Sequence record: PQ330092
Direction: 5' to 3' (one strand)
Length of the DNA stretch: 64,000 nt
Source of the DNA: Escherichia phage JP4
The position numbers and the translations under genes were made by a program. The notes beneath the pieces were generated by a model that saw only the letters and a list, made by a program, of their open reading frames with translations, had not been told where the DNA came from and did not search any database. Positions 3,878-13,502 of the stretch are shown here, one piece after another. Within the stretch, counting starts at the first letter, position 1. Every line of letters begins with the position of its first letter.

Positions 3878-3960
3878 GTGGTTGACTTCGGTCAGCCATT
3901 TTGCTATTATATATTCATTGAGAGATAGCTCACTAGCCCACAGGGTGCAGGAGTGTATCT
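3878..3960 (+). promoter_or_regulatory. Promoter + stem-loop unit without ORF (copy A); candidate small RNA
   Basis: TTGACT-16-TATTAT embedded in hairpin, followed by AGCCCACAGGGTGC motif. Confidence 0.4.
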
Positions 3961-4002
3961 ATTGTATAAGTATTGAGTACTGAAAACTATTTTTAAAAAG
4001 TA

Positions 4003-4031
4003 CTTGCAAACTATCTCAATAGGCGTATAAT
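4003..4031 (+). promoter_or_regulatory. sigma70-like promoter with upstream A/T-rich UP-like tract
   Basis: GAAAACTATTTTTAAAAAGTACTTGCA...TATAAT. Confidence 0.65.
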
Positions 4032-4082
4032 GTTTTACATCGAAAGGGGAAACGGTTTCCCCTGGTAATAAGGAAACAAATC

Positions 4083-4424
4083 ATGACTATTGCAATTGCT
4101 CAATCTAACTTTGAAAATGAAATCATCGCTCAGACACTGCGTTTAAGTGATGGTCGGGCCGAAATTAATTACGGTTTCAATTCAGGCGGTTGTGAAAAAT
4201 ATCAGTACTTTGTAACGGCTGATGGCGGTGTCCTGGGTATCAATACAGTTATTGTAAACATCCAAAAAATTAATTTCAATGATCCAGACGATAGCCAGTT
4301 TTACATCACAGGCGTAGACGTGAACTATGAGGATGACTCACTAACTGATGATCACACTGGCGAGCGGTTAGAAAGTGCATACGGTGAAGATGATTATCAG
4401 TCCGGTCCAGAAGATTTCGAATAA
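4083..4424 (+). CDS. Hypothetical acidic protein (113 aa)
   Basis: Promoter 4003-4031 with UP-like A/T tract, hairpin, SD AAGGAA; strongly acidic C-terminus. Confidence 0.7.
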   Translation: MTIAIAQSNFENEIIAQTLRLSDGRAEINYGFNSGGCEKYQYFVTADGGVLGINTVIVNIQKINFNDPDDSQFYITGVDVNYEDDSLTDDHTGERLESAYGEDDYQSGPEDFE

Positions 4425-4438
4425 TATAAAAAAATAGT

Positions 4439-4466
4439 TTGACAATAGATTATAGTACTGTATAAT
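4439..4466 (+). promoter_or_regulatory. Consensus promoter TTGACA-16-TATAAT
   Basis: Read directly. Confidence 0.7.
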
Positions 4467-4520
4467 AGTTTACATCAAGGGGAGAAAAACTTCTCCCCAC
4501 TAACAGAGAGAGAAAACAAA

Positions 4521-4733
4521 ATGGCTAATATCCGCACTGTACTGAAAAATGCAAAACAAGTTTTATTTTCTGACCACGATTATTTTAATAAAGATATTAC
4601 AGGCGTTCGGAATATCAAAGATGTAAAAAGTGTTATGGGTATCTATTGCAATATGAAACGTGTCGGCACGTTCGGCGATAAAGTACTATACCAGGCAGGG
4701 GATTACAATTTTACACTGACTATTATTAACTAA
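4521..4733 (+). CDS. Hypothetical protein (70 aa)
   Basis: Promoter 4439-4466, hairpin GGGGAGAAAAACTTCTCCCC, SD GAGAGAGAAA. Confidence 0.7.
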   Translation: MANIRTVLKNAKQVLFSDHDYFNKDITGVRNIKDVKSVMGIYCNMKRVGTFGDKVLYQAGDYNFTLTIIN

Positions 4734-4752
4734 AAATATTATCACAGTACTA

Positions 4753-4781
4753 TTGACATAGTTTGATAGTACTGACATAAT
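4753..4781 (+). promoter_or_regulatory. Consensus promoter TTGACA-17-CATAAT (copy of 1923-1951)
   Basis: Read directly. Confidence 0.7.
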
Positions 4782-4816
4782 AACTTTTATCAACTACACT
4801 ACTAAGGAATTAAAAA

Positions 4817-4996
4817 ATGGCTATCATCGCAAAAACTGAAATCGTTGGTATGGATTCTATCATCATGACGTTTGAAGATCAAAAAGGTATGTATGTAGTT
4901 TCCTATGGTGATTATGTTCGGGAGTATGAAACGGTAGACGAAGCCTTTGAAAGTTACATTCGCCAGGTGAATAAAGCATACGACGACTACCGCTAA
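4817..4996 (+). CDS. Hypothetical small protein (59 aa), MAII-start family, not in ORF track
   Basis: Promoter 4753-4781 (near-identical to promoter 1923-1951), SD AAGGAA. Confidence 0.6.
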   Translation: MAIIAKTEIVGMDSIIMTFEDQKGMYVVSYGDYVREYETVDEAFESYIRQVNKAYDDYR

Positions 4997-5086
4997 AATA
5001 TATTACCAGTACTATTGACAACGTTTGATAGTACTGTATAATAAGTTTTATAAACAGTAGTTAACTTAACCTAAGAGAGAAATAAA

Positions 5087-5230
5087 ATGATCGCACTGGA
5101 TTCATTCATCGACGCAGTACTGGCAAAAACTGGCGAGGATCTGACCGCAGAACAATACGCGATGATCGAGCAATGTCAGCAAGACGGTAAATCGGTGAAA
5201 GATACTGTTAAGATTATCCGCAAGATGTAA
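5087..5230 (+). CDS. Hypothetical small protein (47 aa), not in ORF track
   Basis: Promoter TTGACA-TATAAT about 5013-5041; SD GAGAGA; terminator hairpin 5237-5266 follows. Confidence 0.55.
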   Translation: MIALDSFIDAVLAKTGEDLTAEQYAMIEQCQQDGKSVKDTVKIIRKM

Positions 5231-5236
5231 GATTAT

Positions 5237-5266
5237 AGCCCACTGGTTAACGCTGGTGGGCTTTAA
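5237..5266 (+). terminator. Hairpin terminator with embedded Chi octamer
   Basis: AGCCCAC...GTGGGCT stem; GCTGGTGG at 5252-5259; weak T-tract. Confidence 0.5.
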
Positions 5267-11373: not shown

Positions 11374-11595
11374 ATGACTACAATGACTTGCATTTACGCT
11401 TCCAATCTTCTGAATGATGCGGCCTTTAATGTTGATTCAGAATATCAATGTTATCGGGATGAAAATAAAAAAGTTTTTGTAGTTGATAATAATGGTTTCC
11501 ATATTGAATTACAATCCGGCTTCACTGGTGTTGATGGTAAATCAGTATGGGGCGTACAGGATGATAAAGGCACATATCATTTTAAACGTAATTAA
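11374..11595 (+). CDS. Hypothetical protein (73 aa)
   Basis: Start refined to MTTMTC after promoter about 11291-11319, hairpin, SD AAGGAA. Confidence 0.65.
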   Translation: MTTMTCIYASNLLNDAAFNVDSEYQCYRDENKKVFVVDNNGFHIELQSGFTGVDGKSVWGVQDDKGTYHFKRN

Positions 11596-11679
11596 GTATT
11601 GACAAAGTATATTAGTACTGTATAATAGTTTACATCAAGGGGAGAATAGTTCTCCCCGATACTAAAAGGAAACAAAATT

Positions 11680-11952
11680 ATGTCCAGCTACTCCGCTACT
11701 ATGATCATTAAAGATATGAACGGTAATCCTACTTCTGCTGGTGGATCATTTGGAAACATTAATTTAGATGGTCGGTTATCCATGCAATCAGCCATCGATG
11801 CAGCGAAAGAAGTTTTTAAGAATGAATGTACTGTTAGTAAGCTGGATTATATGGGATTCGCTATCGAAAAAACTAATCGTTTTGTGAACTACAAAAAACC
11901 ATTGATGATTGATACTAACCTGAAAGCTAACGAAGTGGAGTACTTATTATGA
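11680..11952 (+). CDS. Hypothetical protein (90 aa)
   Basis: Promoter about 11598-11625, hairpin, SD AAAGGAAA. Confidence 0.7.
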   Translation: MSSYSATMIIKDMNGNPTSAGGSFGNINLDGRLSMQSAIDAAKEVFKNECTVSKLDYMGFAIEKTNRFVNYKKPLMIDTNLKANEVEYLL

Positions 11953-12140
11953 CAGTTGAAGAAGTTAAAAAAGTACTGGCAGTACTACGCTATCATAATC
12001 ATTGCAAGGTGAAGAATGATCCTGATTATCTCGATTCATCCCTGGAAGAGGATACACTACAAGCAATAAGCCATATGCAAAAAATGCTTAAGCGTATGAC
12101 TGAAAAGAATAGACCGGACTATATCGGAAATAAAATTTAA
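11949..12140 (+). CDS. Hypothetical protein (63 aa)
   Basis: ATGA overlap with upstream gene. Confidence 0.65.
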   Translation: MTVEEVKKVLAVLRYHNHCKVKNDPDYLDSSLEEDTLQAISHMQKMLKRMTEKNRPDYIGNKI

Positions 12141-12226
12141 AAAGTACTTGCATTGTAGTTAGATTAACGTATAATGTTTTACATAGAGCGGGGGAATAGT
12201 TCTCCCGCCAGTCCAGGAGATACACC

Positions 12227-12490
12227 ATGAACACTATCGAAATCACTATCAATGCACACGTATACGACAACGTAGTACTGCAAACTACTATGACCGCTAA
12301 TGATACCAGTACTTTGCGGAATACTGTTATTAGTGCCGTATGTGCTGCAATCGGTGATGTCGCCCTGGAAAATGCAAAACACGTAAACGATGGTTTCACT
12401 ATGTGCAAACGTGATAACGCAAAACATATCATCGTAGAAGGTTACGGCGGTGTAGAATATAATGTTTATATGAAAAAAGTACTTGCATAA
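12227..12490 (+). CDS. Hypothetical protein (87 aa)
   Basis: Promoter about 12143-12171, hairpin, SD CAGGAG. Confidence 0.7.
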   Translation: MNTIEITINAHVYDNVVLQTTMTANDTSTLRNTVISAVCAAIGDVALENAKHVNDGFTMCKRDNAKHIIVEGYGGVEYNVYMKKVLA

Positions 12491-12557
12491 TAACTAAAAC
12501 AAAGTATAATGTTTTGCATAGGGGGAGATATCCTCCCCCACTAAAAGGAGTAATAAA

Positions 12558-12782
12558 ATGGCTAACTTTGATGAACTGATGCGGGAAGTAGCTAACCTGG
12601 CAGAAGAGAAGAAATCATTCGATTCTATCTATAACACCGCTCACCGTGATTCAGTACTGGCATGTAACCAGGATCAAAAAGATGAACTAATCGCCACCTA
12701 TCATGAAGCATGGAAGTACTACCGACAATGGGAGAAAGAAGAAAGAGAGTCTACCATTGACGGCCTCAATAATCTAATCTAA
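12558..12782 (+). CDS. Hypothetical protein (74 aa)
   Basis: Promoter about 12479-12507, hairpin GGGGGAGATATCCTCCCCC, SD AAGGAG. Confidence 0.7.
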   Translation: MANFDELMREVANLAEEKKSFDSIYNTAHRDSVLACNQDQKDELIATYHEAWKYYRQWEKEERESTIDGLNNLI

Positions 12783-12858
12783 AAGTTTTATTTCAGTACT
12801 ATTGACATAGCTTGATAGTACTGATGTAATAACTTTACTAACTACAAGGGGAAACATA

Positions 12859-13116
12859 ATGGAACAGTTCACACAATATCGGGTAAATCCTCAAGCGATG
12901 GCCTACGTAGAAGACCATAAAACGTTACCAGTACTAACACCAATTAAAGGCCATATCTATCGTGCAATGTCGTGGTGTACGGCCCAGGATGGCTATAAAA
13001 CCGTAGCCGTTGGTATGTATTGCGGTAATGGTGAATGGTTTGATCCAAATAATCCGGTAGCCATTGACAGTACTGAAAAAATGAAATGGGCCGACTACAT
13101 CGAAGATATTTCATAA
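12859..13116 (+). CDS. Hypothetical protein (85 aa)
   Basis: Promoter TTGACA-17-TGTAAT about 12803-12831; SD AAGGGGAAA. Confidence 0.7.
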   Translation: MEQFTQYRVNPQAMAYVEDHKTLPVLTPIKGHIYRAMSWCTAQDGYKTVAVGMYCGNGEWFDPNNPVAIDSTEKMKWADYIEDIS

Positions 13117-13126
13117 AACTATTTGA

Positions 13127-13154
13127 CAGTACTAACCAGTAATGTATAATGTTT
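13127..13154 (+). promoter_or_regulatory. Consensus promoter TTGACA-16-TATAAT
   Basis: Read directly. Confidence 0.7.
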
Positions 13155-13205
13155 TACATAGAGCGGGGGAATAGTTCTCCCGCCAATAGTTTGGAGTAAA
13201 ATATT

Positions 13206-13406
13206 ATGTCTATCGCTCTCGCCCTGGTTGAAGTACTGAAAGAAGCTAAAGCCAACCTTATCGATGTACAGATTAAGGAATTGCAAAACGGCTTAATCGG
13301 CTGTACTTGTACCGCTGGCGGTGCGGCAGACTATCGAGAACACGAATCACTCGAATCACTGGTTCGGTATCTTACCATGATCGTTGATGATTGGAGAATC
13401 ATCTAA
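13206..13406 (+). CDS. Hypothetical protein (66 aa)
   Basis: Promoter 13127-13154, hairpin, SD GGAG. Confidence 0.7.
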   Translation: MSIALALVEVLKEAKANLIDVQIKELQNGLIGCTCTAGGAADYREHESLESLVRYLTMIVDDWRII

Positions 13407-13424
13407 CAAAAAAGAATAAAAAAA

Positions 13425-13502
13425 GGGATTGACTCCGGTCAGTCCCTTTGCTATTATATACGCATAGACAAAAACTAGCCCACAGGGTGCATAGGTGTAT
13501 CT
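13425..13502 (+). promoter_or_regulatory. Promoter + stem-loop unit without ORF (copy D)
   Basis: Same architecture. Confidence 0.4.

Follow-up and report, generated by a model that had tools for sequence, protein, structure and literature searches.

Phages T5 and SPO1 carry early host-takeover regions in their terminal repeats, known as the pre-early region in T5 and the terminal redundancy in SPO1. The RaK2/121Q-group jumbo phages are under development for therapy and, to our knowledge, over 80% of the genes they carry, and the whole of their regulatory RNA, still await characterisation. Direct terminal repeats (DTRs) of ~20-22 kb have been established in the Asteriusvirus clade from experiment or read coverage (PMC13070987, PMC5259590); that of fEgEco12 measures 20,993 bp (PMC13070987) and that of CBB 22,456 bp (PMC5259590). 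In the Pseudomonas jumbo phage PA5oct the DTR contains two highly transcribed, single-copy non-coding RNAs without an open reading frame (ORF), ncRNA001 and ncRNA002, of 236 and 451 nt (PMC7318152). Here we analysed a 64,000-nt stretch of Escherichia phage JP4 (sequence record PQ330092; hereafter the window), where an original prediction had flagged four promoter-in-hairpin units between positions 3,878 and 13,502 as candidate small RNAs or decoys. We found that these units belong to a multi-copy family of short modules in the terminal repeat, which vary in the manner of a structured non-coding RNA and whose promoters often overlap the predicted terminator of the gene upstream.

Window positions 1-14905 are base-for-base identical to 20115-35019, so that a 20,114-bp DTR is present in two tandem copies whose junction lies within the window. 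Copy 2 occupies 14906-35019, copy 1 starts left of the window, and every flagged unit is present again 20,114 bp downstream. Megablast places the DNA among the Asteriusvirus jumbo coliphages (CRJP21 at 95.8% identity, then UE-S1, phAPEC6, G17, 121Q and PBECO4), and the matching region in vB_Ec-M-J carries the annotation 'Direct Terminal Repeats'. The DTR is an early-type region, with small plus-strand ORFs, about a dozen perfect TTGACA-16-TATAAT promoters and many terminators. As in T5 and SPO1, it forms a long repeat of small ORFs, each with a strong host-sigma promoter and with terminators between them; unlike in those phages, ~10 promoters per repeat appear to drive structured RNA and no ORF. 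The module resembles the PA5oct RNAs, which come from a related clade, as an ORF-less transcribed region within a long terminal repeat, whereas it is short and multi-copy.

The repeated units are real and far beyond chance. A 41-mer has exact copies at 7893, 11162 and 13420 and, in copy 2 of the repeat, at 28007, 31276 and 33534, with 0 copies in 100 shuffles. The copy at ~3874 has 6 differences from the 41-mer and is missed at <=3 mismatches, and forms the same stem through two fully compensatory pair changes and one G-C to G·U change, with the loop UUCG and not UCCG. The four promoter-in-hairpin units thus stand where they had been placed, with a stem of 12 bp rather than the 9 bp first described. 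The motif CCCAYAGGGTGC (<=1 mismatch) occurs 15 times in the window against 0.07 expected, and none of the sites lies outside the DTR. Sites were recovered at 3937, 5595, 7952, 11226 and 13479 on the plus strand and at 16006, 18157 and 19689 on the minus strand, including all those already reported after the promoter at 5538 and, inverted, at about 15992, 18143 and 19681. Further sites were found at 18089 (+) and 16221 (-), together with a partial copy at 16157 (+).

Units were gathered as CC(C/T)ANNGGGTGC sites from the window, two annotated relatives and IMG/VR loci from a pattern scan, giving 69 genuine units. Beyond the window the family, of more than 69 copies, extends to RaK2, GAP32, CBB, 121Q and Yersinia relatives. 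All 69 units have a sigma70-like -35/-10 pair in which 20-29 nt separate the end of the -10 box from the motif, and all 69 carry a conserved C-A-T whose A lies 7 nt past the -10 box. From this spacing and conservation we infer that transcription starts at the A. From the start, the ~50-nt module would comprise 5'-AU, an optional hairpin H1, a linker (A)CUAR, the 12-mer CCCAYAGGGUGC and the segment that can pair with it in helix H2. The CC, A and GGGUGC of the 12-mer are (nearly) invariant across units. H1 is found in ~2/3 of units as a variable stem of 3-5 bp (UGAG/CUCA, GACG/CGUC, AGUC/GACU, CGC/GCG, UGGC/GCCG, ACCAC/GUGGU, UCCA/UGGA, UCGAA/UUCGA, AGACA/UGUCU, GCCG/CGGC and others) closing a purine-rich loop of 6-8 nt (GAGAAA, GCGAAA, AGAUAA, AGAACAA), and in the short class AUAGAAACAAAUCAG takes its place.

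The original prediction had proposed a covariation analysis of the copies, and this gave compensatory swaps in H1 and mostly one-sided support for H2. In an alignment-free test H1 folds in 36 of 37 distinct long-class 5' segments (mean -3.45 kcal/mol, against -0.73 ± 0.18 kcal/mol for shuffled sequences). Its three inner pairs swap between GC, CG, AU and UA and account for 65 of the 70 double-changed cells that the structure has overall, a total reached by 0 of 500 shuffles, in an alignment that was fitted to the covariance model and so leans towards it. In H2, GGGUGC pairs with a downstream segment (GYRUCY; for example GUAUCU, CGUCU, CGCCC, UAUCU or GUAUUC) across 4-6 purine-rich bases; in an ungapped MAFFT alignment 89.7% of cells are paired, and sliding the partner by 1-3 columns lowers this to 27-60%. 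The variable strand shows only transitions that keep the pairs (G·U to G-C, U-A to U·G), and two units show a full C-G to G-C swap. Of the six core pairs, three are as a rule G·U; in RNA from the opposite strand these would become C·A mismatches, and H2 is therefore specific to RNA read in this direction. An alternative 4-bp fold, the mini-hairpin RCCC-ANN-GGGU, is mutually exclusive with H2. It varies to CCU...GGG (U·G) in several Yersinia-phage units and to CCU...AGG (U-A) in two units, and the sequence variation looks compatible with both folds. RNAalifold returned no structure for the model-derived alignment owing to gappy and junk rows, and this run is uninformative. The distance from start to motif differs among copies (14, 15, 19, 20, 21, 22 or 23 nt) and they share no ORF; since these distances and indels keep no reading frame, the module is not protein-coding, and a coding reading was ruled out. 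Together, these patterns argue that the module is a conserved structured non-coding RNA, with base pairs held by compensatory change.

A covariance model built from 10 in-register units, which gives the bit scores below, finds 10 units per DTR on both strands plus the remnant at 16157, and no unit in window 35020-64000. Here P1 denotes the promoter of a flagged unit, and P2 the proximal promoter that follows it.

3882-3910, plus strand: promoter P1, TTGACT-17-TGcTATTAT (promoter scan)
3917-3966, plus strand (copy 2 24031-24080): module core, long class (H1 UGAG/CUCA, CCCACAGGGUGC, H2), 52.1 bits
4004-4031, plus strand: proximal promoter P2, TTGCAA-16-TATAAT with an A/T-rich UP-like tract, for gene 4083-4424 (promoter scan)
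5538-5566, plus strand: promoter TTGACA-17-TGgCATAAT of the 5573 module, outside any hairpin (promoter scan)
5573-5624, plus strand (copy 2 25687-25738): module core (H1 GACG/CGUC), 61.2 bits
7937-7981, plus strand (copy 2 28051-28095): module core, short class without the H1 stem, then P2 8022-8049, 35.8 bits
11206-11255, plus strand (copy 2 31320-31369): module core, long class, then P2 11294-11321 and gene start 11375, 57.8 bits
13464-13508, plus strand (copy 2 33578-33622): module core, short class, then P2 13570-13598 and gene 13652-13984, 45.1 bits
15977-16062, minus strand: leftward unit, promoter ~16062-16035, core 16028-15977, 60 bits
16157-16176, plus strand: degenerate remnant, H2 only, 15.7 bits
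16192-16277, minus strand: leftward unit converging on the remnant, promoter 16277-16250, core 16243-16192, 55.7 bits
18035-18118, plus strand: plus member of a convergent pair, promoter 18035-18063, core 18070-18118, 40.8 bits
18128-18207, minus strand: minus member of the pair, promoter 18207-18179 (12/12 consensus plus TG), core end 18128, 30.4 bits
19617-19746, minus strand: stand-alone unit, promoter 19746-19718, core 19711-19660, bidirectional terminator 19637-19617, 62.5 bits; predicted RNA ~100-115 nt

The minus-strand promoter at 18207-18179 is divergent from a plus-strand promoter at 18255-18282.

The modules are found in three downstream contexts. About 55% are sense copies and ~45% are terminator-ended or face a convergent copy. 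In the sense copies, which include the four flagged ones, ~60-90 nt of A/T-rich sequence leads to a strong P2, which carries a UP-like tract, and from there through a hairpin leader to the next gene; P2 follows the motif in all four flagged units, as had been described. No ORF is annotated or plausible between unit and next promoter in the window, CRJP21 or UE-S1, which upholds the claim that the units have none. Roughly 12-15 units in the family are terminator-ended. The stand-alone copies are mostly antisense to genes and run into a bidirectional terminator at a constant 47-52 nt past the motif, which they have in common with the convergent gene. A further 16 units form 8 convergent pairs with motif starts 68-86 nt apart, in phages of E. 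coli, Yersinia, Pectobacterium and others; the window holds two such pairs, 18089+/18157- and 16157+/16221-. The transcripts of a convergent pair each carry the complement of the partner's 12-mer, and within the window the complement (<=1 mismatch) occurs only in oppositely oriented units. Stand-alone and convergent copies are predicted to yield free RNAs of ~95-115 nt. Sense and antisense copies use one and the same slot, from a gene's terminator to the next gene's promoter, which argues that the module needs no read-through into the next gene. As a candidate small RNA the module is therefore borne out in part: it is promoter-driven, non-coding and covarying in two helices, and many family members, such as the stand-alone copy at 19746-19617, have their own intrinsic terminator as well as their own promoter, whereas the four flagged copies have no terminator of their own. 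The RNA polymerase decoy or insulator role also put forward in the original prediction gained no support.

The flagged hairpin consists of the 12-bp stem, a C(UNCG)G tetraloop and a U-rich tail, and begins 7-16 nt past the stop codons of the ORFs ending at 3868, 7883, 11151 and 13406. These upstream ORFs are annotated in CRJP21 and UE-S1, and the UE-S1 annotation marks terminators at two homologous sites (the counterparts of 11164 and 13422). The tail after the terminator stem is UUUGCUAUUAU. In the final three pairs of the stem, A in the 5' arm faces U in the 3' arm, and the U run of the tail GCUAUUAUAU is interrupted; the terminator scan rule is passed, and relatives have UUUUUUG. We predict that the hairpin is the intrinsic terminator of the upstream early gene. 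The same DNA carries, in all four flagged units, the promoter TTGACT-17-TGcTATTAT, a 10/12 consensus match plus TG. Its TTGACT -35 box indeed lies inside the hairpin, taking up the last five stem positions of the 5' arm and the first loop base, and the extended -10 box TGcTATTAT sits in the terminator U-tract.

3875-3902, plus strand (copy 2 23989-24016): terminator hairpin of ORF 3734-3868 (AAAGUGGUUGAC-UUCG-GUCAGCCAUUUU), holding the P1 -35 box; fold -15.9 kcal/mol, z -4.0
7895-7922, plus strand (copy 2 28009-28036): terminator hairpin of ORF 7734-7883 (AAAGGGAUUGAC-UCCG-GUCAGUCCCUUU), overlapping P1 7902-7930; fold -19.5 kcal/mol, z -4.9
11164-11191, plus strand (copy 2 31278-31305): terminator hairpin of ORF 10510-11151, overlapping P1 11171-11199 (terminator/promoter scan)
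13422-13449, plus strand (copy 2 33536-33563): terminator hairpin of ORF 13206-13406, overlapping P1 13429-13457 (terminator/promoter scan)

The overlap of terminator and promoter is kept in 31 of 65 distinct units across genera, with TTGAC fixed in the 5' arm and a UNCG loop. Around the fixed TTGAC the 5' arms read GGGAUUGAC, GUGGUUGAC, GGGGUUGAC, GGAUUGAC, GGUUGAC and GUACUUGAC, and the 3' arm matches each of them. Because these units keep TTGAC while the other stem positions covary, the promoter within the terminator appears to be a conserved design and no accident of one phage. The hairpin had been taken for a special promoter structure; what stands of this is that the promoter overlaps it, whereas the hairpin itself is better seen as the terminator of the gene upstream, and only about half of the family's promoters are so placed. 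Like the UNCG-loop intrinsic terminators in wide use among T4-type phages, it lies just past a stop codon and combines a G+C-rich stem with a C(UNCG)G loop and a U-rich tail. It also has an A-run ahead of the hairpin, so that bidirectional action is possible and, unlike in T4-type phages, the same 45 bp hold a complete sigma70 promoter, an overlap conserved across genera. Transcription is predicted to end and start anew within ~45 bp. No description of such a terminator-embedded promoter was found in the literature searched, which covered Asteriusvirus, RaK2, GAP32 and CBB, and neither are the repeated elements described there.

A BLAST search with one unit matched only Escherichia, Klebsiella, Salmonella and Erwinia jumbo phages. 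Records with both DTR copies had 8 matching places against 2-4 in single-copy assemblies, and wherever a record annotates its 'direct terminal repeat', the matches lie inside that feature. A second viral scan returned 35 loci, among which the covariance model recognised real units only on RaK2-like contigs of ~110-380 kb; 16-mer matches on small unrelated contigs score nothing with the model, and an extension of the family outside jumbo phages was rejected. Homology to the PA5oct RNAs was likewise rejected, as the first 40 kb of PA5oct, which span its 39,080-bp annotated repeat, gave no covariance-model match. A host-encoded homologue or mimic was sought in 185,579 bacterial and archaeal species genomes; the 9 matches, in unrelated taxa, score 14-27 bits against 30-69 for phage units, none is in Enterobacterales, and this candidate was dropped. 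For window 1-36000 Rfam 15 gave no match at E <= 1, and ARAGORN found no transfer RNA (tRNA) or transfer-messenger RNA (tmRNA). The module thus appears to be restricted to one phage clade and conserved throughout it, in several genera. Across genera the 12-mer stays invariant between flanks that cannot be aligned. These genera have only about a third of their proteins in common (PMC5259590).

We tentatively favour, at a little short of even confidence, a reading in which the module is an abundant immediate-early non-coding RNA that would act in trans through its invariant 12-mer. It is preferred because of the stand-alone, terminator-ended copies, the independence of orientation, the high dosage and the invariance at the level of sequence. 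The anatomy on its own, that is the overlap, the covariation, the copy number and the conservation in the clade, is far more secure than this function, and the RNA ends are those we infer from the DNA. In the proposed mechanism, an upstream early gene would end at its intrinsic terminator and the same DNA would start the next transcript. Ten copies per 20-kb repeat would amount to ~20 per packaged genome, and a protein or a complementary RNA could recognise the 12-mer, for instance so that a host factor is titrated as the phage takes over the cell. In the flagged sense copies the RNA would be either processed out or kept as the 5' end of a read-through messenger RNA (mRNA). Terminator-ended small RNAs of the Hfq type are found in bacteria and prophages and include prophage 'anti-sRNA' sponges. 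The stand-alone copies resemble them in a length of ~100 nt, a promoter of their own, a conserved 5' region, an A/U-rich linker and an intrinsic terminator. They differ in that the module is multi-copy, half of its copies are without a terminator, and the conserved element is partly structured with no open seed.

Several observations weigh against a trans-acting RNA, in addition to the lean of the H1 counts noted above. No target or protein partner of the module was identified, and the literature searched contained no Asteriusvirus transcriptome. One strand of H2 is invariant, so that its support is mostly one-sided, and 500 shuffles cannot tell H2 from chance. Single-sequence folds of the core are weak (z -0.6 to -1.3), and the structural claim consequently rests on covariation. 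H1 is absent from ~1/3 of copies and ordinary P2 leaders carry similar 5' hairpins; it may be a generic 5' stabiliser. Finally, no terminator lies between module and P2 in the four flagged copies. The original prediction had set small RNAs against ordinary leaders that read through into the next gene and, for want of that terminator, the flagged copies may be only the leaders of a distal promoter.

That plainer explanation can be put for the family as a whole: P1 would be the distal promoter of the next gene, the segment a stabiliser in its 5' untranslated region, and the other copies duplicated cassettes. The flagged copies do run into P2 and a gene, the relative L018:12617 has a ribosome-binding site and ATG directly after the module, and P2 leaders likewise open with 5' hairpins. 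For the four flagged copies in particular it is a live possibility, but as a general account we consider it quite unlikely, given that the 12-mer is invariant across genera amid unalignable flanks, that many copies have no downstream gene at all, and that the P2 leaders are without the 12-mer. The terminators and promoters that crowd the DTR also invite a reading in cis, in which nascent H1, 12-mer and H2 would stay with their own polymerase or recruit a factor to it and so change pausing or terminator read-through in the DTR. Here the comparison is with lambda/P22 nut and HK022 put, which are also short structured RNAs just past early promoters. The element always lies 15-25 nt from the inferred transcription start, its purine-rich-loop hairpin beside a conserved linear motif recalls boxB and boxA, and sense copies sit exactly at terminator boundaries without terminators of their own. 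However, ~45% of copies lead to no gene, ending at a strong terminator or facing a convergent copy, others lie antisense in the same slot, H1 is dispensable in ~1/3, and the linker (A)CUARCCCA has no match to the boxA consensus. There are ~10 copies per repeat against 2 per genome for nut and put, and no antiterminator or RNA-binding family was found among 10 DTR ORFs in a partial Pfam scan. Such a cis-acting element is, in our view, unlikely.

A protein site in the DNA would account for other features. In this case CCCAYAGGGTGC would be an asymmetric operator at ~+15 to +35, blocking escape or elongation at some early promoters, much as mycobacteriophage L5 stoperators are asymmetric motifs of 12-13 nt with many intergenic copies, co-oriented with transcription. 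The 12-bp motif is likewise asymmetric, multi-copy and co-oriented with transcription at a fixed promoter distance, its sequence is invariant beyond what pairing asks for, and convergent pairs make inverted repeats. Unlike a stoperator, each motif here has its own promoter at that distance and flanks that covary as RNA helices, G·U pairs included. The CCU...AGG double changes preserve the mini-hairpin, and an operator would leave unexplained a set of gene-less promoters existing only for repression; we regard it as improbable. Alternatively, transcription itself could be the function, with gene-less promoters serving as RNA polymerase sinks, as sources of supercoiling near divergent promoters, or as motors drawing in the 370-kb genome. 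The DTR is extremely rich in consensus promoters, antisense units stand back to back with gene promoters and, if phage T5 is a guide, entry of the DTR into the cell probably comes early in infection. We give this little credence, as it does not explain a conserved, covarying transcribed sequence, and the leftward units would oppose inward pulling of DNA. CsrA-type GGA loops, the RfaH ops element, the elemental pause consensus and mimicry of tmRNA or 16S ribosomal RNA were also considered and dropped as unsupported.

A stronger form of the trans-acting reading, which we think somewhat doubtful, is that RaK2-like phages flood the cell in the first minutes with ~20 gene copies' worth of structured RNA. 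CCCAYAGGGUGC would then capture a conserved enterobacterial factor (an RNA chaperone, nuclease, RNA polymerase or defence sensor) or reprogramme the transcribing polymerase, while the embedded promoters would pass terminating polymerases on. If this were true, the RNA would define a class of phage host-takeover RNA not seen before, and the embedded promoters a compact regulatory architecture that is likewise new. An RNA with ~20 copies and strong promoters is likely to be among the most abundant early products, and would therefore give direct access to host takeover or anti-defence. Compact and portable in design, the terminator-embedded promoter could be used as a natural system in which to test whether RNA polymerase is recycled once it has terminated. 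As kinds of element, phage small RNAs, intrinsic terminators and sigma70 promoters were known already; what appears to be new is the RNA family, its multiplicity in the terminal repeat, the conserved convergent pairs and the systematic embedding of promoters in terminators.

Other features of the repeat were noted alongside the module. A second ORF-less unit is present in two copies per DTR, at 8056-8135 and 18288-18368 (+), with a strong promoter and an RNA of ~80 nt. It has an AUCAGG...CCUGAU closing stem, two inner hairpins and another promoter directly after it (z -2.3 and -1.8), and gave no Rfam or tRNA match. The P2 mRNA leaders (4040-4085 and 11327-11377, +) carry a conserved 5' hairpin, GGGGAAAC...GUUUCCCC, just ahead of the ribosome-binding site, which is probably a 5' stabiliser common to early mRNAs. 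The partial Pfam scan of the 10 DTR ORFs returned a GNAT acetyltransferase and a weak, sub-threshold protein-kinase-like match in a 213-amino-acid ORF, which in some relatives is annotated as a Ser/Thr kinase; both products are plausible host-takeover enzymes.

10510-11151, plus strand: ORF with the protein-kinase-like match (Pfam)
6187-6543, plus strand: ORF with the GNAT acetyltransferase match (Pfam)

The repeat boundary lies at 14905/14906 and reflects either a concatemer-like join or a wrapped record. The leftmost ~1 kb of the repeat (14906-15900, especially ~15690-15830) is ORF-poor and contains the direct repeats TAGCCGTYTA and TAGCCATCCAGCCATCCAG, and leftward promoters face the genome end; these repeats and promoters may be packaging or end-recognition signals. 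G+C content is ~38-40% within the DTR and falls to ~31-33% in the unique sequence to the right (window 34001-36000 onward). The commonest hexamer of the DTR is AGTACT, often within CAGTACTG, with 133 occurrences in 20,114 bp against 6.5 expected and 65 more in the 29 kb after the DTR (35020-64000). It is found just 5' of -35 boxes (AGTACTTGCAA), within promoter spacers (CCAGTACTGGCATAAT) and 8-20 nt past the RNA module, and is probably a promoter-associated protein-binding site. In Yersinia and CBB relatives, paired AGTACT copies make terminator-like hairpins.

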